From IMG/VR virus record IMGVR_UViG_3300029288_000163, positions 6,787 to 70,786 of that record: a stretch of DNA of 64,000 bases. One strand, given 5' to 3'. The position numbers were made by a program, and so were the translations under genes. Of the stretch, positions 1,543 through 47,753 are shown one piece after another. The stretch comes from a virus (lineage: Duplodnaviria; Caudoviricetes). The number at the start of each line of letters is the position of its first letter. Within the stretch, counting starts at the first letter, position 1. Below the pieces are notes generated by a model. That model saw nothing but the letters and a program-made list of their open reading frames with translations. It was not told where the DNA came from and ran no database searches.

Positions 1543-1971
1543 CTACAGCCACGGAAACCCTACCTTTTTGTAATGCTTGTAAACTTGTCGGTAAAGTTTT
1601 ACCAAATCTCGGAAGATGATGAATTCTTGCCTTTCCGCAGAACATTCGCTAGTTATTTGTGCCCACCAATTTCTATAAGGTGAATCATCATCAAAGCAAT
1701 TCTTTTTCCACATTTTCTGCAATGGACAGAATTTGCAAGTATTGTGGTCATCATACATCAAACATAGCCCACAATAACCTGTCTGACCACGATCCTTATT
1801 CATAGGATGCCATTTTGCAACTGATAAGGCAACAGCACCCAGTAATCCGTAGGTGTAAAGGAATTCATTGATTTCCTCTTTAGTGAAGGAAGGGCTCAAT
1901 TCAATAAACTCTTCCCAGGTCTGACATACTGGAGCTAAACTCCTGCGTGTTTTAAGGTCTGCAACCTTCAT
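1543..1971 (-). CDS. Cys-rich hypothetical protein; first 17 codons derive from the IS right end
   Basis: ORF with CGLC/CKFC pairs; ATGA overlap with the tnpB stop. Confidence 0.6.
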   Translation of the reverse strand: MKVADLKTRRSLAPVCQTWEEFIELSPSFTKEEINEFLYTYGLLGAVALSVAKWHPMNKDRGQTGYCGLCLMYDDHNTCKFCPLQKMWKKNCFDDDSPYRNWWAQITSECSAERQEFIIFRDLVKLYRQVYKHYKKVGFPWL

Positions 1972-2978
1972 GCAGTTGCCTCTTTAGGGGTATCAGTGCT
2001 CCCCTTGCCAACATCTCTGTCTGCTGGCAATTGAAGAATGCCTTGATGACGAAGTGCTATGACAAAGGCAGCATTTACGTCGGCATCATCAACGTGCCCA
2101 CAATGGGTACACTTGAACTTCTTTCCTTTTCGAGTGCCTAGAAGTCCACACCGGGAGCATTGCTGGCTCGTATAGTGAGGATCAATCTTGACAACAGGAA
2201 CCCCAAGCAGTTTGGCCTTGTATTCTATGAACTGTGCGAGTTGATAGAAAGACCAACTGTTCAAGGAGCCCTTGAATTCTTTGGATCGTTTCTTAGTCTT
2301 TCGAATTCCTGTAAGATTCTCAAGAACAATACCGGTGTTGTTTTCTACTGCATAATCTACTATCCTCCTGGAAATCTGATGGTTCAAATTTCTAACTTTC
2401 CTGGCCTCTCGATTCTTTATCTTTTTAACTAGCTTGTTCTTTACTTTCTTTTGCAGGTTCTTCCTCTGGGCCTTGTACTTCCGGTGGAGATGATATGCTT
2501 CCTTGCCTAACTTCAGAACTTTTCCAGTTGTTGGATTTGCAGCAACCAAACAATGTCCCGTTGTATTCAAGTCCACCCCAAGCCAAGCTTCTGGTTGCAT
2601 TGGTGGCTTCTCTGGCACAGTAACCGCCACATAAGCATATTTATTGTCAAGCACAATTTGGTTTATTTTAACAAATTCAGTAAAATGATAAGTTAAAGTG
2701 AGCTTTAAACAAGCAACCCATAAAACTTTGTTCTTAGTGTCCGGTTTAATTGCCTGCCCAGGAACAATAAGATTAACATTGGAAATTTTCTTTATCTTTT
2801 TATCACGCCCATATTTTCTAAGAATTTGACACGCAATAGCAGCCTTAAGCCCTATATGTTTTACAGCAGAAGATGAAAATTGATTTGGGTTTTTAAGCGC
2901 AAACTCAGCCACCTGTCGAGCTTTTGCTAGCTCCACAGAAAAATCCCGACCATGCTTAATTTTGTATGTTAGTATCAT
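1968..2978 (-). CDS. tnpB: TnpB RNA-guided nuclease
   Basis: RuvC-I GVDLN, RuvC-II VLENL, Zn finger CSRC/CTHC, RuvC-III DADVNAA. Confidence 0.93.
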   Translation of the reverse strand: MILTYKIKHGRDFSVELAKARQVAEFALKNPNQFSSSAVKHIGLKAAIACQILRKYGRDKKIKKISNVNLIVPGQAIKPDTKNKVLWVACLKLTLTYHFTEFVKINQIVLDNKYAYVAVTVPEKPPMQPEAWLGVDLNTTGHCLVAANPTTGKVLKLGKEAYHLHRKYKAQRKNLQKKVKNKLVKKIKNREARKVRNLNHQISRRIVDYAVENNTGIVLENLTGIRKTKKRSKEFKGSLNSWSFYQLAQFIEYKAKLLGVPVVKIDPHYTSQQCSRCGLLGTRKGKKFKCTHCGHVDDADVNAAFVIALRHQGILQLPADRDVGKGSTDTPKEATA

Positions 2979-3373
2979 TTATTCTTCTGATCTTCAATAT
3001 ACGCTTTTATTGCTTCCTCCGAAATTTGCCCCACTGCTGCACAAAAATAACTTCTGGTCCACAAACAAGGCAACCGACTTTTCAGAAAAGGAAACTCTTC
3101 CCTTAATTTCCGGGATGTGTAGCCTTTCAGTTGCCCTACAACCCAGTGTACCGCATCAACAGGACTTGCTTTAACAAACAAACGTACATGATCTGGCATA
3201 ACTTCTAAAGACACAATTTCTATTCCCAGTTGATTTGCCTTCTCCTGAAGATAGATTTTCAACTTAGCCTCAACCTCGTAATCCAGAACCTTGCGCCTGT
3301 ACTTGGAACACCAAATAAGATGATATCCTAAATTGAAAACTGATGTTCTACTTGTTTTCCATCTCTTGTCCAT
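2975..3373 (-). CDS. tnpA: IS200-type Y1 transposase with mutated HUH motif (HVR); likely start MDKRWK
   Basis: YHLIWCSKYRR, MPDHVRLF, LWTRSYF and YIEDQ motifs. Confidence 0.9.
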   Translation of the reverse strand: MDKRWKTSRTSVFNLGYHLIWCSKYRRKVLDYEVEAKLKIYLQEKANQLGIEIVSLEVMPDHVRLFVKASPVDAVHWVVGQLKGYTSRKLREEFPFLKSRLPCLWTRSYFCAAVGQISEEAIKAYIEDQKNK

Positions 3374-3467
3374 ACCTATTAGTTGCCTGTCAACCAACTA
3401 TTTATGATTTTAAAAAATTATTTTTTATTTCACTCTCCCTACAACGAAAAAAGGAAATTTTTCAACT

Positions 3468-6472: not shown

Positions 6473-7209
6473 TACCTAACCATAAGGCCTCTTTTGCCTT
6501 TGTCAAACAAAAAAGACTCCGAATCTGAAATTTCGTAATTGACCAGTTCAGCAACTTCCCGTGGGTCCATTTTGTATTCGCTAGCCACAGTAAAAATTGA
6601 AACAAGCATGTTCTCCCGTTTTGCAATTTCCCAAACCCGATCCTTTACCTCATTTGCCTGCTTACGCGGACGCATTGGTAAGGCATTCAATGACTTATCT
6701 GTTGGTGAAAGTTCTTCGTTAAGTGGCGACATTAACGGATTATCACCAATTGTTTGCGTACCCATAGGAACGTCGTCAGCTTTCTTGTCTTTCAACTTCT
6801 TTTCCATCTTCTTCAATTCAGGATAATAGGAATTCCCCAATTCTTCCAAATGATCGCTGGCTATCTCAATTGCAACATCATAATCGTCTGTGTGCTCAAG
6901 CTCTACTTCCGCCCCCTCTTGGAGATCCTTCTTCTCAAAGTCACTAGGCGTTTTTCCATCTGCTTTGCCTCCTGGGAGTCGGTCTTCCCATTCATCGTCA
7001 CTGGGTAGCCCGTTAGCTCTGGCCACTCTTCTTCCAATTCTCCCCCAGTCATTAAGGCTATTAATGAGCCGTCCAAGTCGATCAAAAGCTCTTTGATGGG
7101 AATTTCCAGTCCGTGAGGAATTACGGTAGTCTGCGAAAGCCTTGTCCAATTCGAATCCGACAATTCTATCGAGTATCTTATATGCACGTCGTTGAAAGGT
7201 ATCTGCCAT
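6472..7209 (-). CDS. Modular phage protein with DUF5661-like domain
   Basis: LPGGKADG ... GAEVELEHT ... IASDHLEE ... YY motif. Confidence 0.65.
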   Translation of the reverse strand: MADTFQRRAYKILDRIVGFELDKAFADYRNSSRTGNSHQRAFDRLGRLINSLNDWGRIGRRVARANGLPSDDEWEDRLPGGKADGKTPSDFEKKDLQEGAEVELEHTDDYDVAIEIASDHLEELGNSYYPELKKMEKKLKDKKADDVPMGTQTIGDNPLMSPLNEELSPTDKSLNALPMRPRKQANEVKDRVWEIAKRENMLVSIFTVASEYKMDPREVAELVNYEISDSESFLFDKGKRGLMVR

Positions 7210-7705: not shown

Positions 7706-8389
7706 TTAAAAGAGAAGATCAATAAACCCTTGGCGAACTTTGGTTAATGTCGTTTTCTTGTTTGTGCGATGATCCTTCACAATATCGTCTTGTTCCCTGT
7801 ACGTGCGAACCTTACACCCTCTTTGCCCAGACCCAAGCTGTACTCGCCTCTTCTCCGCTATTTCTGAATCTTGGGCCATCTTCGCATTGCCCAAAACCTT
7901 AGCTGATAGAAGCCGTCTAGCTGTCTCCCGGTTCTGCTTTTGCGAGCGCTCGGTGCAACACTCAACCCTAATACCAGAAGGCTTGTGCAACAGTCGTACA
8001 GCCGTTGAAGTCTTGTTATTATTTTGCCCACCATTGCCAGCAGCTTTCCTGTACAACGTTTCCTCAAGATCCTCTTCTCTGAATTGTGGAATAGAATTTG
8101 GTAGGCTAAGGACAGCGCAAGTAATTGTGGAGGTCTGTACTCTACCCCGTTTTTCTGTACTAGGGACATGTTGCCAGCGGTGTCCCCCAGGTTCATTCTG
8201 GAATAATTTGGTAGCATTCTCCCCAATTATTTCCAAAACTGTTTGACCAGGACGTTGATCAACTATTTCGACACTAAGTGCAAACCTTGCGGAATATTTA
8301 GCATATATTGCAGTCATCTCATGTACTAACAATTTGCTATCATTTCCGCCTTCTGCTGCACGTATTTCGACATATATTGTTTCTTTCAT
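7706..8389 (-). CDS. Class I peptide chain release factor, RF1-like, lacking domain 1
   Basis: EIRAAEGG, E.GGHR..VPSTE..GRV.TS (PxT), GGQ and RTY motifs; GAGG RBS before MKETIY. Confidence 0.85.
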   Translation of the reverse strand: MKETIYVEIRAAEGGNDSKLLVHEMTAIYAKYSARFALSVEIVDQRPGQTVLEIIGENATKLFQNEPGGHRWQHVPSTEKRGRVQTSTITCAVLSLPNSIPQFREEDLEETLYRKAAGNGGQNNNKTSTAVRLLHKPSGIRVECCTERSQKQNRETARRLLSAKVLGNAKMAQDSEIAEKRRVQLGSGQRGCKVRTYREQDDIVKDHRTNKKTTLTKVRQGFIDLLF

Positions 8390-8543
8390 TTGCGTGCCTC
8401 TTGACCGATGTGTTAGTGAAACCATAGAACTATCAAACCGACTTTATGATAGAGCTATTCACTAATATTTGGTCAAGATCGCAAAGGTAGGAGTTCTGAC
8501 AAACACATGAATTTCCTTAATCTGCAATGATCAGAGAAACACT

Positions 8544-8628
8544 TGGTGCGCGTGGCCCGGTTCGCACGGGCATAGCCTTGCGGCTGAAAACTTTTGAGGT
8601 TTTTGTGTATACACTCCACCACACGCGC
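8544..8628 (-). tRNA. tRNA-Leu(CAA)
   Basis: Cloverleaf GCGCGTG/CACGCGC, anticodon loop CTCAAAA, long variable arm, encoded ACCA. Confidence 0.9.
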
Positions 8629-8643
8629 AATAAATATGGAATT

Positions 8644-8715
8644 TGTGCCTTCTAGGGTTTGCACCTAGGTAATTCCGTTATGAGCGGAATATGCTGACTT
8701 CTGCATTAAGGGCAC
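8644..8715 (-). tRNA. tRNA-Met or tRNA-Ile2 (CAT)
   Basis: TTCCG-CTCATAA-CGGAA anticodon arm; CTAGG-TGCAAAC-CCTAG T arm; no encoded CCA. Confidence 0.85.
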
Positions 8716-8719
8716 CTAG

Positions 8720-8792
8720 CGCCCATTCTAGGATTTGCACCCAGGGTCTTTCGGTTAACGGCCGAATGCTTTTGCTACTAAGCTAAATGGGC
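8720..8792 (-). tRNA. tRNA-Asn(GTT)
   Basis: GCCCATT/AATGGGC acceptor stem; TTCGG-CCGTTAA-CCGAA anticodon arm; discriminator G. Confidence 0.9.
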
Positions 8793-9277
8793 AATGACGG
8801 AAGAGGAGCAAAACCGGAATGTACTTCAATATGACACCGACAACAAAGAAGGACGCATTTATCTAGTTCTGCTTTTACTTTTTCCCAAGATCTTGTATAT
8901 CCTTTATGTGATATGTTAAAATCTTTTGTACTAGGATCTAAATGATGCGTTGCAAGTGCCTGTATGCATTCACTATACCCACACATAATGCATTTTCCAC
9001 CTAAATACTGCACCGCCTTTTCTTTTAGTTGCTTGCGCCTCCTATCCACATAATAATTATTCTTGCATTTTTTGGAACAAAATTTAAGACCATTTACTGT
9101 ATTAGTACACAAATGCCAGGCACATTTACCAGAATAGTTCCTACCTCTGCCTTTTGTACGCAGGCCAAATTTTTTCATCCACCAACGTACATTAGTTTGA
9201 GAAGTTTCCAACCTGGAACTTATCTCACGTTGGCTACACCCCTCTTCTACTAATTCTTTTAATATTTTTTCTTCCAT
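8783..9277 (-). CDS. HNH homing endonuclease with N-terminal HTH, inside the tRNA cluster
   Basis: GGKCIMCGY ... HHLDP ... KCVLLCCRCHIEVH. Confidence 0.85.
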   Translation of the reverse strand: MEEKILKELVEEGCSQREISSRLETSQTNVRWWMKKFGLRTKGRGRNYSGKCAWHLCTNTVNGLKFCSKKCKNNYYVDRRRKQLKEKAVQYLGGKCIMCGYSECIQALATHHLDPSTKDFNISHKGYTRSWEKVKAELDKCVLLCCRCHIEVHSGFAPLPSLPI

Positions 9278-9283
9278 GCATTA

Positions 9284-9306
9284 AGAATAGCACACAAAGT
9301 TTAGGG
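9284..9306 (-). promoter_or_regulatory. Candidate phage-specific promoter (leaderless)
   Basis: CCCTA-N12-TATTCT, 6 nt before the ATG. Confidence 0.5.
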
Positions 9307-9328
9307 GAATTAAAGCTGACTGAGCTAG

Positions 9329-9400
9329 AAGCGCGGGGACGAGGCGAACGTTCGCTAACCAGATCCAAATTCTGGTGTTTTACCACTAGACTACCGCGCC
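9329..9400 (-). tRNA. tRNA-Gln(TTG), somewhat atypical
   Basis: GGCGCGG/CCGCGCT acceptor stem; CCAGA-ATTTGGA-TCTGG anticodon arm; T-stem mismatch and T loop TTCGCCT. Confidence 0.7.
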
Positions 9401-9474
9401 AAAAGAAAAAATAACCAGACTTGCAGCGTCACTGGTCGATGGACTTTATCCATCCTTAGAAAAGCTCTAGAAAA

Positions 9475-9585
9475 CTTTTCCTGTCTTCGGTGCTCCCCGC
9501 GCCAATAATGTAAATAGCACCTAAGACTTTGACAACAGTTTTCAGCGGGGGAGGACTAACTGTTGCCTAGCTGTTACGGGAAAAG
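9475..9585 (-). ncRNA. Candidate structured RNA (two hairpins with kissing loops)
   Basis: Closing helix plus two hairpins whose loops carry CCCCGC and GCGGGG; strand inferred from context. Confidence 0.5.
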
Positions 9586-9623
9586 ACAATGCCAAGGAGC
9601 CTAGTCTCTTGGCAAAGTCTCCG

Positions 9624-9754
9624 TCTGGGGCCAAGGAATTGCACCTTGGACTTGGGGGCCTTCAGTAGACACAAACAGCCCCTCACGATTCACTTACAGC
9701 GGGTGTCGAATCCCGTGTGCCTTTCCGTTTCCTTTACTTTTTGGATACCCCAGA
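9624..9754 (-). ncRNA. 131-nt tRNA-like RNA with expanded anticodon/variable region
   Basis: TCTGGGG/CCCCAGA acceptor stem, TCC/GGA D-like arm, CAAGG-TGCAATT-CCTTG T arm. Confidence 0.65.
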
Positions 9755-9757
9755 AAA

Positions 9758-9840
9758 GTAACCAGTTTTGTCTTGTCCTCTGGTTACCCAGGACAGGTAA
9801 AATCCCCGTAGGTAATCACTCCACAGGAACCAGACAAAAA
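9758..9840 (-). ncRNA. Candidate pseudoknotted three-way-junction RNA
   Basis: TTTTGTCT/AGACAAAA closes two hairpins; loop GTAACCAG pairs with the 3' CTGGTTAC. Confidence 0.5.
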
Positions 9841-9963
9841 GTTAGGGTAGGGACTTCCAGCGTCACCCCACCAGTGCTAGAGGCTTGATGCCCCGGCCTT
9901 ACGGCTTGTAGCTGTTTCATGTCGCTGCCAGCAACATTTTGTTCAATGATTACAAATACTTCC

Positions 9964-10339
9964 GGTGGAGCCGGTGATATTGAAATCACGTCCGAAAAGT
10001 TCAGACATTCGTATCTACGTGTGTATTGGCAATTCTTACTTGCATTAGTCAGGAAGCCACTAACCTATAACTGTGCAAGGGTTACTCAAAGTTTGACACG
10101 CTGAGTATTCGTGTGTTCTATCCTTGTAATCACGCCCCTTGATTTACTAGGATTCCTCAATCAAGGCACGTTCCCATTAAGCCGCTACTGCCATCGGAGC
10201 GAAAGCAGGCGCAACCATCGTCGGGAATTGGATGACATTGTTTTTGGCAATTGTCAGTGAGGGTCTTTTTAACCCGGTAGCCCACAACCGGGACACGCAA
10301 CAAATCTCGTCAATCTCTCCGTCGAAACCTGACGGCCCC
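9964..10339 (-). ncRNA. ssrA: tmRNA; tag (A)AKNNVIQFPTMVAPAFAPMAVAA* at 10177-10248
   Basis: 5' GGGGCCGTCAGGTTTCGAC; 3' GACGTGATTTCAATATCACCGGCTCCACC; tag ORF ending in AA. Confidence 0.93.
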
Positions 10340-10590
10340 AAGAAACCCCCGTAGATGGATCACATGTGCATCGCTAGAGCGCGTTTCCTTGACGGGCGTT
10401 TCTCGGATACGATGTACAGAAGTGCTACGGGGCAGTCTTCCGGCATAGCGGCAGGCTATGGACGTCCCAGAAGACCATAGTAATAGAGGGAAAGGCCTTA
10501 GCTAGCCAAGCGATTCCCTCTTTTTAGCAAAAACAATTTCGTGTTGCTCTAATCACCGCAAATTTTCAAACATCAACCGGCCACTTTGGG

Positions 10591-10619
10591 AATATAAGGC
10601 CAACAACACCATTTGTCAA
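10591..10619 (-). promoter_or_regulatory. sigma70-like promoter at the head of the RNA island
   Basis: TTGACA-17nt-TATATT. Confidence 0.75.
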
Positions 10620-10788
10620 GGCCTATTTTAAAAATTTAGCGCTGGACCAGTAACAGTCGAAAATCTTTGACGTTTTTGAGACAACACTGAACAATGTCAA
10701 CCTCAAAATGGTCAATTTTCGGGCTTCGCCTCCCGGTTCGCTAGTTAAAAAGATTTTCTGGAAACCATTTCCACAGCGCATAAACTAG

Positions 10789-10817
10789 AGTATAAGGCTA
10801 CGCTTCGCTATTGTCAA
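10789..10817 (-). promoter_or_regulatory. sigma70-like promoter
   Basis: TTGACA-17nt-TATACT. Confidence 0.7.
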
Positions 10818-10965
10818 GGGCATTAAGCTCATCAATTTCATCATCGGTAAGATTATCCCAAAGTTCGTCAAGTTCATCCAAAACAGGATCTACATCAACA
10901 TCTAACGCATCTTCGGGAAATTCCTTGAGTTTATCTAGTAAATCAAGGTACAATTTTTTGGACAT
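10798..10965 (-). CDS. Small, very acidic protein (55 aa)
   Basis: AAGGAGG RBS; MSKKLYLDLLDKLKEFPEDALDVDVDPVLDELDELWDNLTDDEIDELNALDNSEA. Confidence 0.7.
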   Translation of the reverse strand: MSKKLYLDLLDKLKEFPEDALDVDVDPVLDELDELWDNLTDDEIDELNALDNSEA

Positions 10966-11012
10966 GGTAGGAACCTCCTTGCTGTTGGAGGATAATATAC
11001 GAGAGATATTGA

Positions 11013-40202: not shown

Positions 40203-41013
40203 AGTGTGTGCGTACTGCTTTCTCAAGTTGTGCAAGAAGTTCAGGATTATTTTTTAGGGCTTCCCATGCATTGTCCTTACCTTGACCAATACATTCGCCA
40301 TTGAAATCCAACCATGCGCCACGCTTGGAAACTACACCACAATTCATTCCGCAAAGGAGAATATCTAGGGCACGGGGGACGCCTTCACCGTATCGGATTT
40401 CTGTTTCTGCTACTTTGTATGGAGGAGCAACCTTGTTCTTCACTACCTTTATTTCTGTCAAATTGCCTAGAATATCTTCACCCTTCTTTATCTGCGCCTT
40501 ACGTCTAATATCCAAGCGAATAGAAGCATAAAACTTTAGCGCATTTCCACCAGAATTGTGAGATAAAACCCCCTCTGAAAAATAACAACCATTTTCCATC
40601 TTAACATCTACAACCGGAATTAGCTTATCTGAAGGTCTGACAAAAATCGGCTGCGATGCTACCCCCGAAGGTTTTTCAGAAAGAACAGAATATTGTAGCA
40701 AAGAGGTGGAAAGATCAGCTAAAGACACCCAATCATAATTTTCATCCTTATACTTTGCATAAAGAAAATGCTCTGGGCTCCCTGAAAATAAATAATGAAA
40801 CCCCCCAGGCCCTTTTTCATAGACCTTATACTCCTGTCTATCATTTTTTCTAATAATTCCCAAAATTTTGCTTTTAACAATCTCCCCCCCAGCATAAGAC
40901 TTTAAATACTTGTTCTGATCAGATACATCAATCATCTTTCCAATTTCCATATTCTGGATCTGGAACCCGAGTTGCTTGAAAAGTTCTTCCATCGAAAGTT
41001 GCTGTGTATTCAT
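40192..41013 (-). CDS. recA: Split-intein C-fragment (153 aa, 40555-41013) fused to the RecA C-extein
   Basis: GGAGA RBS before MNTQQ; SPEH block B; ...VLSHN|SGGNALKFYASIRLDIR ... KNKVAPP. Confidence 0.9.
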   Translation of the reverse strand: MNTQQLSMEELFKQLGFQIQNMEIGKMIDVSDQNKYLKSYAGGEIVKSKILGIIRKNDRQEYKVYEKGPGGFHYLFSGSPEHFLYAKYKDENYDWVSLADLSTSLLQYSVLSEKPSGVASQPIFVRPSDKLIPVVDVKMENGCYFSEGVLSHNSGGNALKFYASIRLDIRRKAQIKKGEDILGNLTEIKVVKNKVAPPYKVAETEIRYGEGVPRALDILLCGMNCGVVSKRGAWLDFNGECIGQGKDNAWEALKNNPELLAQLEKAVRTHYGI

Positions 41014-41986
41014 TAAAATCTCCGTTCGTATCAATCATTCTCTCAAATACTATAGGGTTATAGGAATACAGTGTTTTCTTACCTGTCCCCCTTTGCGAAT
41101 CCGGAAGCCTAGTACGGACACTAATTCTTTTATTTCCAACCTCAGTTAAAATTCCTAAATATTTTAAATATGCTAACCTTGCCAAAACCCCATTTCCAAA
41201 ACTGGGAACAAGTGGATGACAATTTTGTATCATAGAATCGCTAAGAGTGTCATCTAAAAGATATTCCAACATTTCAGGAATATCAGGAACAAAAACACCC
41301 TTTAATGCTTTATATTCTGTGTATGAGTTAGGAATCGATTCTATTTTTGCAGAAACTTTACTTTTGGCTGCTTGCACACGACCTGCCGGATCTTTTGAAA
41401 AATAATCCATATATTGGGAAAACCCGCTAACTTCAATATAGCCCTTGAACTGGTAGTATGCAAGGGCTCTGTGCAATTTAACAGACATTCCAAGCCGCTT
41501 ATTTACCAAACCACTAATAAATCTGTCCGGTAAATTGGTGCAGCAAGAATAATAACAAACCATGGGTGCAATTCTTTCGTACACACCCAACCAACGCTTG
41601 ACAAAATCTGGATTCCCATATCCACGACTTGCCTCGGAACAAAGTTTTCTTGCTCTCTCGGCATAAGGACCCTGCCAAACTGTCCACCCTGCATTTGCTT
41701 CCCCACCAATAGCAACATTATAATTTGTTTTTTGGCTAACAAAATCTATATTAACTATACGTTTCTCCTCTAACAAAGCCTCTTCTCTAGAAGAATGTGT
41801 AGATAAAGTCTGTCTCAAAAAATTATTTCTACCAAATTTACTAATTGCTTGCTTCAAAACATGTCCTGACCCTAAATACCCATCCCCCAAATCATTGGTG
41901 GAATGAACACCAACATACTCCTTATTATTTACTAAACACGTTGTTTTGTACACTATGTGGTACTTTCTCTCTGGTGTATTACTCAT
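40928..41986 (-). CDS. GIY-YIG (Seg-like) free-standing homing endonuclease between the recA halves
   Basis: IVYKTTCLVNNKEYVGVHST ... DGYLGSG ... YNVAIGG. Confidence 0.88.
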   Translation of the reverse strand: MSNTPERKYHIVYKTTCLVNNKEYVGVHSTNDLGDGYLGSGHVLKQAISKFGRNNFLRQTLSTHSSREEALLEEKRIVNIDFVSQKTNYNVAIGGEANAGWTVWQGPYAERARKLCSEASRGYGNPDFVKRWLGVYERIAPMVCYYSCCTNLPDRFISGLVNKRLGMSVKLHRALAYYQFKGYIEVSGFSQYMDYFSKDPAGRVQAAKSKVSAKIESIPNSYTEYKALKGVFVPDIPEMLEYLLDDTLSDSMIQNCHPLVPSFGNGVLARLAYLKYLGILTEVGNKRISVRTRLPDSQRGTGKKTLYSYNPIVFERMIDTNGDFNEYTATFDGRTFQATRVPDPEYGNWKDD

Positions 41987-41987
41987 T

Positions 41988-42016
41988 GGTATAACCTCCT
42001 ATTAGGAGGTTATACC
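41988..42016 (-). promoter_or_regulatory. Perfect 13-bp hairpin sequestering the endonuclease RBS
   Basis: GGTATAACCTCCT-AAT-AGGAGGTTATACC-A-ATG. Confidence 0.85.
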
Positions 42017-42029
42017 TTAAAATTATTCG

Positions 42030-42728
42030 CTAATCTAAAGCGAGTTCCACCTTTGTACTTGGGTGAACACAAGTAGTTTCAGGGCTGCCAAAAAGAACAC
42101 CAATCTTGTAACGAATTTGATTTGTGAAATAAACCATAACGCCCGACTTAGAAACACTGCTTGTCAACTTCCTCAAACCTTGCCCCATAAGCCTTGCCTG
42201 AAGACCAACGTGGCTGTCTCCGACCTCTCCATTTAGTTCAGCCTGAGGAGTCAACGCGGCTACAGAATCAATAACAATGATGTCCCCCTTAGTCAAAATA
42301 CTGGACATAAGGACAGCCATCTCTAAAGCACGTTCACCGCTATCTGGCTGATCAATAAGAAGGTTCTGAACATCCACACCAACTTTTGATGCATATCCGG
42401 TATCCAAGGCGTGTTCAGCATCGATGAAAGCCGCAACGCCACCGGCTTTTTGCACAGCAGCAATGGCATGTAATGTGCAGGTCGTCTTTCCGGCTGACTC
42501 TGGGCCATACACCTCGATAATTCTGCCATGAGGATAGCCCCCAATACCAAGAGCAATATCAAGAGAGGCAATTCCGCTGGAAGTAGAAGTAATATCTGAG
42601 ACTACTCCGTCACCTTTCATCCATTGAAGGTCATTACGAAGATCCTTATTCTTCGATTCCAGAGCTTTAAGAATTTCAACAATCCTATTCGTCTCAACTA
42701 CTGGTTCAGTTGGTGTTTTCTTTGCCAA
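42030..42728 (-). CDS. recA: RecA N-extein fused to a 13-aa split-intein N-fragment (42030-42071 including stop)
   Basis: [27 protein letters not shown]; ends GSPETT|[13 protein letters not shown]. Confidence 0.93.
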
Positions 42729-46871: not shown

Positions 46872-47753
46872 TCAGTTAAAAGTTCCCTCTGTCAAAAGCT
46901 GCTTGAACAACTTCATCGTTCGCTTACCAATTTCTTTCCGTGCTGCTTTACTCTCAATAATCTCGCCGGAAGCCTCACGCGAAACATCCTCAAGCATTGC
47001 CTTGATAATCTTCGTGGCATCTTCCATTTTAGGCTCTGGGAAACCGTCAAGAACATGCTGAAGACGCATAACCGTTACCCACTCTTCACTAATCGCCTTT
47101 GCATCTTCCAAAGCCTTGATTTCATCGGGATCAGAAAACTTTGGCGTATGTTCGCGCTCTGCAAACTCTGGGCGCTTATGCTTGCAAATGATTCTACCTT
47201 CCCCGTTAATCGTCACTTCGATTGGGGGGTGTAGGACCACGCCTTCCCGCATATGACCCGCCCCAAGGCCATTCCTGACCGCCTGAACGCTATCTGCCAT
47301 GATAGCCGCGTTGATTGCCTCTTCCGTTGTGTCAATCAATTCATAATGTACGAACTCAAAACCAAGACTAGTTGCCAATCTATCGGCTTGTGGAACACTC
47401 AGCCATTGATCCTCATTAAGCAAGACTTCGAAAGCAACGAACTTCAACTCTTTTCCATAGGTAGCCGACATACCCTGAAGCTTTCCACCATAAGCTTCAC
47501 CGTAGATAGTGATAGACTTTGTGGTAGGGTGCTCAAGGAAGTTTTGCTCGAATGTTGCCTTCAGCTTTTCCTGATCAAACAAAGAAACAAATTGCTCATG
47601 CTTTGAACCACCAGAAAAAAACTTGAGTTCCTTCGTTTCAGCATTGTATCGTACATGGGCAGAAGTACCGTGAATCTTCTCAAGTGCCCAACATTGCTTG
47701 AAAATTAGGATTACCTTATTGCGATAAAGGTTCTCTATATGTCGGTAGCCGAT
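46872..47753 (-). CDS. Rnl2-family RNA ligase with apparent ATC start codon
   Basis: Motif I EKIHGT lies upstream of the track's TTG start; YGE, FEV, EGVV and KHK motifs. Confidence 0.85.
   Translation of the reverse strand: MGYRHIENLYRNKVILIFKQCWALEKIHGTSAHVRYNAETKELKFFSGGSKHEQFVSLFDQEKLKATFEQNFLEHPTTKSITIYGEAYGGKLQGMSATYGKELKFVAFEVLLNEDQWLSVPQADRLATSLGFEFVHYELIDTTEEAINAAIMADSVQAVRNGLGAGHMREGVVLHPPIEVTINGEGRIICKHKRPEFAEREHTPKFSDPDEIKALEDAKAISEEWVTVMRLQHVLDGFPEPKMEDATKIIKAMLEDVSREASGEIIESKAARKEIGKRTMKLFKQLLTEGTFN

Follow-up and report, generated by a model that had tools for sequence, protein, structure and literature searches.

The stretch of DNA considered here (64,000 nucleotides (nt), positions 6,787 to 70,786 of the IMG/VR virus record IMGVR_UViG_3300029288_000163, Caudoviricetes; referred to as the window) carries a 131-nt RNA gene with the shape of a transfer RNA (tRNA) at positions 9624-9754 of the minus strand (referred to as the element). 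It has an acceptor-like stem, a D-like hairpin and a T arm, and two domains take the place of the anticodon arm. This frame is nonrandom, its T-loop is specific for the phage, and the tests for a tRNA, a transfer-messenger RNA (tmRNA) and an intron-containing tRNA all failed. Our favoured reading, to which we give an even chance, is that the element encodes a tRNA-derived, non-decoding RNA that is cut from a tmRNA-tRNA precursor by the enzymes that process tRNA ends.

Positions within the element are numbered p1-p131, corresponding to 9754 down to 9624 on the minus strand. All genes of the window are on this strand, and the element and every motif quoted in an earlier, preliminary description of it are also read there. 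The gene was delineated with a frame scan compared to shuffled sequences (see below) and a constrained fold. Its two ends form an acceptor-like stem of 8 base pairs (bp), including one G.U pair (p1-8, 9747-9754, with p124-131, 9624-9631; pair probabilities 0.66-1.0; 7 of 7 pairs in the frame scan), which directly abuts the T arm. The 3' strand is not followed by an encoded CCA; CGG comes next. The D-like hairpin (p10-25, 9730-9745) consists of a 3-bp stem (p10-12/p23-25; pair probabilities 0.77-0.88) and a 10-nt loop, which has AGU in place of the usual GG. The ARAGORN drawings of the tRNA-Met and tRNA-Asn of the phage show the same loop type. The T arm (p107-123, 9632-9648) has a 5-bp stem (p107-111/p119-123), an optional sixth pair (p106-p124) and the 7-nt loop UGCAAUU. 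It is preceded by the linker CAAGUC (p101-106, 9649-9654), which resembles a class-I variable loop.

The position of the anticodon arm is occupied by domain X (p27-70, 9685-9728, 44 nt) and arm Y (p73-100, 9655-9682, 28 nt), with loops of 8 and 16 nt in constrained and free folds. In the constrained fold, domain X rises from a base stem (ACGG/UCGU) through an irregular middle to an apical hairpin (p40-55) in which CGGG/CCCG closes the 8-nt loop AUUCGACA. Arm Y has a G+C-rich 6-bp stem (GGGGCU/AGGCCC; pair probabilities 0.95-1.0), and its 16-nt loop includes CUA at p87-89. All proposed helices are free of mismatches. The G+C content of the element is 0.527 (arm Y 0.61, domain X 0.545), compared to 0.47-0.58 for the tRNAs of the phage and 0.425 for the window. 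None of the constrained or free folds contains a 7-nt anticodon loop (U33, anticodon, purine 37), and a direct reading of the 131 nt finds no UCA triplet. The anatomy given in the preliminary description, i.e. the three tRNA-type helices, the CGGG/CCCG hairpin, the GGGGC-type arm and the lack of both an anticodon loop and UCA, is thus borne out.

To assess the frame, both strands of the 64 kb were scanned for a 7-bp stem that directly adjoins a 5-bp stem closing a 7-nt loop of the U[GU]C[AG]A type, at a span of 60-220 nt. The only matches are the element, tRNA-Asn and tRNA-Leu; tRNA-Met and tRNA-Gln escape the scan due to one mismatch each. Shuffling the window 100 times with dinucleotides preserved gave, on average, 0.11 frames per window (128 kb over both strands), with one frame in 11 of the 100. 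The T-loop was compared in a census of 297 tRNAs called by ARAGORN, four from the window and 293 from 84 other phage or metagenome loci. A loop starting with UGC[AG]A, as in the element, is found in three of the four window tRNAs (Leu, Met, Asn) and in none of the 293 others, which mostly have UUCGA (224) or UUCAA (43). The phage tRNA-Gln is the sole window tRNA with a normal UUCG T-loop, and it also keeps GG in the D-loop. Because the T-loop is private to the phage and the D-like loop type is shared with its tRNA-Met and tRNA-Asn, the frame of the element is a native, tRNA-derived structure of this phage.

The UGC[AG]A T-loop places a G at the near-universal pseudouridine-55 position, and the D-loops of tRNA-Leu, tRNA-Met and tRNA-Asn (8544-8792) lack GG. 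Such a private tRNA corner may escape a particular factor or require one.

The 5' 31 nt of the element score best against a phage tRNA-Gln (metagenome locus L033, 9883-9954). Three of the six best scorers among the 297 tRNAs are tRNA-Gln, though just eight of the 297 are of this type; the score is a simple one and was devised post hoc. A covariance model of the element (model R1), to which ordinary tRNAs were aligned, matches arm Y with their anticodon arm and CAAGUC with their variable loop. The likeness to tRNA-Gln instead places the anticodon stem at the base of domain X. Under either alignment, two arms occupy the place of one. Neither domain X nor arm Y is repeated elsewhere in the window (all matches have E values of 0.1 or more), which gives no support to the insertion of a mobile hairpin. 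The best explanation appears to be that the element is derived from a tRNA gene, with tRNA-Gln as the closest likeness of its 5' third.

The element does not resolve into a standard tRNA in the ARAGORN intron-option and Rfam checks that the preliminary description had proposed. ARAGORN calls four tRNAs and a tmRNA in the window, and none at the element by default, with introns or at the 80% threshold. Rfam 15 yields no tRNA match (RF00005), neither at the gathering score nor at E values up to 10 in a search of 2.2 kb; in that search, the element has a lone, meaningless match to a long non-coding RNA family. What a canonical tRNA shares with the element is the 7-bp acceptor stem stacked on a 5-bp T stem with a 7-nt T-loop (UGCAAUU); a single anticodon arm with a 7-nt loop is missing. 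At a low threshold, ARAGORN also reports a tRNA with a 4-nt anticodon at about 8460-8531, which was rejected as spurious since its stems are mismatched.

The preliminary description had offered an intron-containing tRNA as one explanation, and this is not upheld. ARAGORN was applied to all 3,828 single internal deletions of the element and to 23,040 paired deletions that cover X and Y. None of the 3,828 single and none of the 23,040 double deletion variants is callable as a tRNA, while the tRNA-Asn control was called. By the criteria of ARAGORN, taking out one or two inserts thus does not turn the element into a tRNA. An intron reading would call for the excision of two separate inserts, and even then a canonical 7-nt anticodon loop with U33 would be missing.

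A tmRNA or a tag was not found at the element by ARAGORN, including its tmRNA mode, or by Rfam (RF00023), consistent with the lack of a tag reading frame in the preliminary description. The third pair of the end stem is U-A or G-C, depending on the register, so that a tmRNA-type G3.U70 is absent. The model for selenocysteine tRNA (RF01852) does not match. There is no UCA, and the D stem has 3 bp instead of the required 6 bp; an 8+5 acceptor/T stack is possible and is insufficient alone to define this tRNA. The YrlA and Y RNA families (RF02553, RF00019) show no match at E values up to 10, and no Ro/TROVE domain was found when the 50 larger open reading frames (ORFs) of the window were scanned against Pfam.

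The element is part of a cluster of RNA genes on the minus strand. It begins with a promoter-like site (TTGACA-17-TATATT, 10591-10619), which is recognized by an 11/12 consensus match only. This is followed by the phage tmRNA gene (9963-10339; ARAGORN; Rfam RF00023, 98.3 bits), a structured spacer of 208 nt, the element, a hairpin-rich spacer of 223 nt and, as the next gene, tRNA-Gln(UUG) (9328-9400; ARAGORN/Rfam). Then come an HNH homing endonuclease gene inside the tRNA cluster (8783-9277; PHROG 2255, E 2.8e-26), tRNA-Asn, tRNA-Met and tRNA-Leu (8544-8792; ARAGORN, Rfam) and, at the downstream end of the RNA cluster, the gene for an RF1-like release factor of 239 residues (7706-8425), which has PCRF and RF-1 domains and is devoid of the N-terminal domain. 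This protein matches the prfA model with an E value of 1.9e-54, yet stays under the family cut-off. The two spacers (9755-9962 and 9401-9623) are rows of hairpins (z-scores of -2.16 and -2.59, respectively) with a raised G+C content (0.46-0.48). The hairpin just 3' of the element re-employs the CCAAG/CUUGG stem of the T arm. No terminator-like site was found on the minus strand in the region 8300-11000, which makes a single precursor plausible. A transcript from the promoter near 10.6 kb probably covers the tmRNA, the element and the tRNAs.

On this basis, we infer that the element is transcribed, processed and stable. It would be co-transcribed with the upstream tmRNA and the four downstream tRNAs, RNase P would cut at its 5' end (p1/p2) and 3' tRNA-trimming enzymes at its 3' end, and the CCA-adding enzyme may follow. 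The product would be an RNA of 129-131 nt. RNase P and the enzymes of the tRNA 3' end recognize frames of this type, and the retained parts would be those read by tRNA-end enzymes, namely the coaxial stack of acceptor stem and T arm and the phage-type corner of D-loop and T-loop. Because X and Y replace the anticodon arm and no 7-nt anticodon loop exists, the element cannot decode. By analogy, it is most likely kept as a tRNA look-alike of the kind of the "species 1 RNA" of phage T4 (see below). Its job may be that of a decoy or sponge that occupies a tRNA-binding factor, e.g., a host nuclease or an enzyme that grips the tRNA corner and the acceptor end. This is a weakly supported guess, but we commit to it. 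The next option is a purely structural signal for cutting and stabilization within a long precursor. The minus-strand transcripts of the window offer no stretch of 11 nt or more that is complementary to the element, and therefore no antisense target is in view. The tRNA mimic or decoy of the preliminary description fits all that was seen (the tRNA frame, the lack of a decoding loop, the position in a phage tmRNA/tRNA cluster), and it is the function itself that stays putative.

It is tempting to speculate that the element is a working part of a module for translation takeover, which would also comprise the tmRNA, the RF1-like factor that lacks an N-domain and the private G55-type tRNAs with GG-less D-loops. 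In such a module, an anticodon-less RNA framed like tRNA-Gln would present a private corner that is read by a phage or host factor, and arms X and Y would be exchangeable cargo that varies between strains. Taken jointly, these proposals are rather improbable.

Relatives of the element were searched in several collections. A blastn search with the region and the element against 50,697 phage records returned just a match to the HNH gene and chance matches at an E value of 7. Pattern scans gave no real homologue in IMG/VR (two chance matches in coding DNA) or in GTDB genomes (one chance match in coding-looking DNA of a metagenome-assembled genome). In IMG/VR, a tmRNA-tag pattern led to nothing beyond the contig already known, and a PolA query found no relative. 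Via the release factor, 80 metagenome loci were fetched, taken from 292 confirmed relatives among at least 596 pattern matches. A comparison of the element to 84 loci by nhmmer and blastn found nothing, and model R1, run over 82 sources (592,778 bases), recovered only the element itself and six ordinary tRNAs (E 0.075-1.5).

Some of the release-factor relatives are on contigs of 280-460 kb, and many are beside tRNA arrays or a tmRNA, as seen in a survey of 54 of the 80 loci that scripted scans extended to all 80. In locus L016, the release factor is adjacent to a suppressor tRNA with a UUA anticodon. The nearest relative found is locus L005, in which the release factor is 63% identical and the tmRNA tag peptide resembles that of the window. 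The two tags (window, 9963-10339, minus strand, 23 residues; L005, 1211-1572, 20 residues) are alike despite a strongly different base composition of the two phages. The start of the tag (NN-V/I-V/I-x-F) presumably recalls cyanobacterial tags.

When the fetched loci were scanned for the tRNA frame, 20 long-span frames were obtained, about half of which stem from neighbouring tRNAs. Five frames in these loci are not called by ARAGORN at default settings, four with an encoded CCA (L027 209-309, L082 912-1064, L082 2216-2334 and L046 3220-3335) and one without (L030 219-344). They span 100-150 nt and combine a perfect acceptor stem and T arm with sizeable inserts at the anticodon or variable region. 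When introns are allowed, ARAGORN calls L082 2216-2338 as a tRNA-Glu with a 48-nt insert.

The stretch is present as DNA in landfill and groundwater sequencing runs. Contigs from two further studies are identical over the element (X2, 9639-9758; X3, 9560-9768). Another X2 contig covers 9407-9652; 17 of its 20 differences are listed, all 17 are below 9616, and among these listed differences none is in the last 29 bases of the element. At 9590-9616, across the hairpin 3' of the element, this contig has 13 listed substitutions and three one-base gaps. Run X4, from a third study, contains a contig of 346 letters over 9603-9946 with 35 differences and six gaps (a copy of about 90% identity). Its five listed insertions and deletions (9684, 9704, 9709, 9715 and 9726) are confined to domain X and spare the frame, the D-like hairpin, arm Y and the T arm. 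The listed runs that contain the stretch include no RNA run, and the runs compared are all contigs; X13 is labelled RNA-Seq, is judged to be probably DNA and covers parts of the HNH gene and the tmRNA only.

In X2 and X3 contigs, 9840-9914 is swapped for 71 letters, so that co-occurring strains differ in a mosaic manner across the RNA gene region. Joints at 8541->9623 and 8548->9407 suggest strains without the four tRNAs and the HNH gene; these joints have sides of 30 letters and were given no weight.

Several observations weigh against a functional, tRNA-derived RNA. The fold with the frame enforced is a five-way junction of -42.8 kcal/mol, compared to a free minimum of -43.6. Without constraints, the ensemble assigns probabilities close to 1.0 to the acceptor stem and arm Y, 0.77-0.88 to the D-like hairpin and only 0.25 to the T arm, versus 0.75 for a rival pairing (p29-32/p117-120). 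The z-score of the minimum free energy is only -1.41, and 17 of 200 shuffles fold as well. Because of these values, energy alone does not single out the predicted tRNA-like fold. Domain X is weakly predicted (pair probabilities of 0.16-0.26), and the D stem has just 3 bp. No homologue was found that is divergent enough for a covariation analysis. In the nearest relative (L005), the element is absent and protein-coding DNA lies between the tmRNA and the release factor gene. In another X4 contig, 9328-9918 (591 bases with tRNA-Gln, spacers and the element) is swapped for 329 other letters, which shows that the phage can do without the element or can at least exchange it. The five indels in domain X of the X4 copy may represent one diverged patch and not five independent events. 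A loop-loop kissing pair (GACAC/GUGUC), which the preliminary description had raised as a possibility, is not significant, as 413 of 5000 loop shuffles attain 5 bp.

The main rival is a decayed tRNA relic, a possible although distinctly less probable reading. It corresponds to the decayed pseudogene without a conserved insert which the preliminary description had named as the outcome that would speak against a special RNA. In an RNA gene cluster that is prone to recombination and contains a homing endonuclease, a former tRNA gene, perhaps a second tRNA-Gln, would have acquired two insertions, and its anticodon loop would have disappeared; excision by RNase P would be possible, and the RNA would have no role. 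This is favoured by the failure to call a tRNA even after removal of inserts, by the absence from L005, by the replacement in one X4 strain and the mosaic structure of the region, and by the HNH gene inside the cluster. The weak D stem, the low probability of the T arm, the unremarkable z-score and the accumulation of the listed indels in domain X fit as well. Drift, however, would erode helices, and all helices of the element, including both inserted hairpins, are perfectly paired and G+C-rich. In addition, the phage-specific T-loop and the matching D-loop type have been kept, and the inserts are at the position of the anticodon arm and variable loop, outside of the frame helices. X and Y are not repeats within the window, so that an origin of the inserts from mobile hairpins gains no support.

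A cis-acting processing signal ("t-element") is decidedly unlikely. In that case, the frame would direct the cuts by RNase P and RNase Z that part the tmRNA from the tRNAs and would stabilize the pieces, while the excised RNA is roleless. The position between tmRNA and tRNAs and the spacers full of hairpins are as expected for such a signal, and signals of this kind have been proposed for plant mitochondria (PMC1920247). The tmRNA and the tRNAs, however, already own signals for RNase P and 3'-end processing, so that an extra frame is unneeded, and two elaborate G+C-rich arms would be superfluous.

We consider it very unlikely that the element is a real decoder, i.e., an intron-containing or unusual tRNA (a CUA suppressor via the Y loop, or a tRNA-Gln) that acts spliced or as is, perhaps with the help of a phage RNA ligase. 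The CUA at p87-89 and the tRNA-Gln-like 5' part point in this direction. An RNA ligase had been noted in the preliminary description, and an ORF with such a domain is indeed encoded in the window (46872-47582; PF09414, E 2.1e-8), with a weak Rnl2 match (33 bits versus a cut-off of 197). The release factor gene adjoins the cluster, as in the "code change modules" with release factors that are described in a preprint (bioRxiv 10.1101/2021.08.26.457843). Against a decoder stand the uniformly negative ARAGORN results with introns and with deletion variants and the lack of a 7-nt loop with U33 before the CUA. The neighbouring release factor is RF1-like and would oppose a UAG suppressor because RF1 reads UAG. 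There is no stop codon recoding in the window. The standard code spans 88% of the minus strand, and read-through would give two (TGA), three (TAG) or seven (TAA) merges of reading frames, with no excess for any one stop. We know of no small spliceosome-free tRNA introns of the archaeal kind in bacteria.

A chance arrangement of hairpins in a structured intergenic spacer might be suspected because the whole 9401-9962 region is hairpin-rich and the z-score of the element is unremarkable, but it is practically negligible, since only 0.11 frames are expected per 128 kb of shuffled sequence, yet this frame is located in a 2-kb tRNA cluster, on the right strand and with the private T-loop of the phage.

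The remainder of the window is phage-like and codes for a family-A DNA polymerase, a DnaB-like helicase, a primase, SbcCD, RecA and methyltransferases. It also encodes several homing endonucleases and an IS200/IS605 pair (1968-3397, minus strand), which consists of a Y1 transposase (2975-3397) and a TnpB/Cas12f-like protein (1968-2978). The RecA ORF (42030-42728, minus strand; 232 residues) covers the first 203 of 262 profile positions and is followed by an ORF for a SegE-like GIY-YIG endonuclease (40928-41986, minus strand). This region (40928-42728) may represent a recA gene interrupted by a homing element. The HNH gene overlaps the 5' end of tRNA-Asn by about 10 nt and mirrors segB in the tRNA cluster of T4.

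Returning to the non-decoding RNA that we favour, the element can be compared to several known systems. It shares with canonical tRNAs, especially tRNA-Gln, an acceptor stem of 7-8 bp, a T arm with a 7-nt loop, a D-like hairpin and a variable-loop-like AAGUC before the T stem. It differs by its length of 131 nt, by two arms in place of one and by the missing 7-nt anticodon loop. In the tRNA-like domain of tmRNA, the acceptor stem and T arm are also retained and other RNA replaces the anticodon arm, and a GGAUUCGAC-like motif in domain X adds to this likeness. The motif is, however, at a hairpin tip, 40 nt from the 5' end of the element, and not beside the acceptor strand as in tmRNA. The element has neither a tag reading frame nor G3.U70, and a normal tmRNA gene is located 208 nt upstream on the same strand. 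YrlA (RF02553) is likewise a non-coding RNA with a tRNA-like module and is often found near RNA repair genes; its ends are not known to form a tRNA acceptor stem, whereas those of the element do.

The t-elements are tRNA-like structures of plant mitochondrial transcripts, for which a role as RNase P/Z signals is proposed in PMC1920247. Like the element, they are non-decoding, and RNase P and RNase Z are the enzymes presumed to cut them; for the element, such cleavage is predicted by analogy. While t-elements flank organelle mRNAs, the element is positioned between RNA genes that already have tRNA-type ends.

The closest parallel is found in phage T4, where rnaC ("species 1 RNA", 139 nt) and rnaD ("species 2 RNA", 119 nt) are annotated in the T4 record at the end of the tRNA cluster. 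In both phages, RNA genes of 119-139 nt without a decoding loop are part of a tRNA cluster with a homing endonuclease (segB in T4, HNH here). In rnaC, as in the element, a T arm near the 3' end abuts a 7-bp end stem, with two long hairpins in between. RNase P matures rnaC. In contrast to the element, rnaC has a canonical T-loop (UUCGAAU) and lacks a D-like hairpin; its end stem contains two U.U mismatches, and its fold is more stable (z-score of -4.57 versus -1.41). Rfam has no family for rnaC or rnaD, and a search of the T4 region (L085) with model R1 gave no match up to an E value of 10. The likeness is of kind and not of descent, so that the RNAs are best described as analogous, not homologous. 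For decades, the T4 species 1 and 2 RNAs have been on record, and they are in effect the only studied examples of their kind; in the 2022 T4 transcriptome paper (PMC9697503), their function is still called unknown.

That an unrelated phage has a different tRNA-framed, anticodon-less RNA at a similar place suggests that the design recurs and is selected. Even if the element were only a relic, it would document the break-up of a tRNA gene in a cluster invaded by homing endonucleases. If the translation-takeover proposal is true, the element belongs to a widespread, uncatalogued class of tRNA-framed phage RNAs, of which T4 species 1 is the only studied member. Because tRNA finders and Rfam miss such genes, the "tRNA islands" of phages would contain RNA genes beyond those annotated. 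With a comparative set, function could be approached through the parts of the frame that are kept and through what replaces the anticodon arm.

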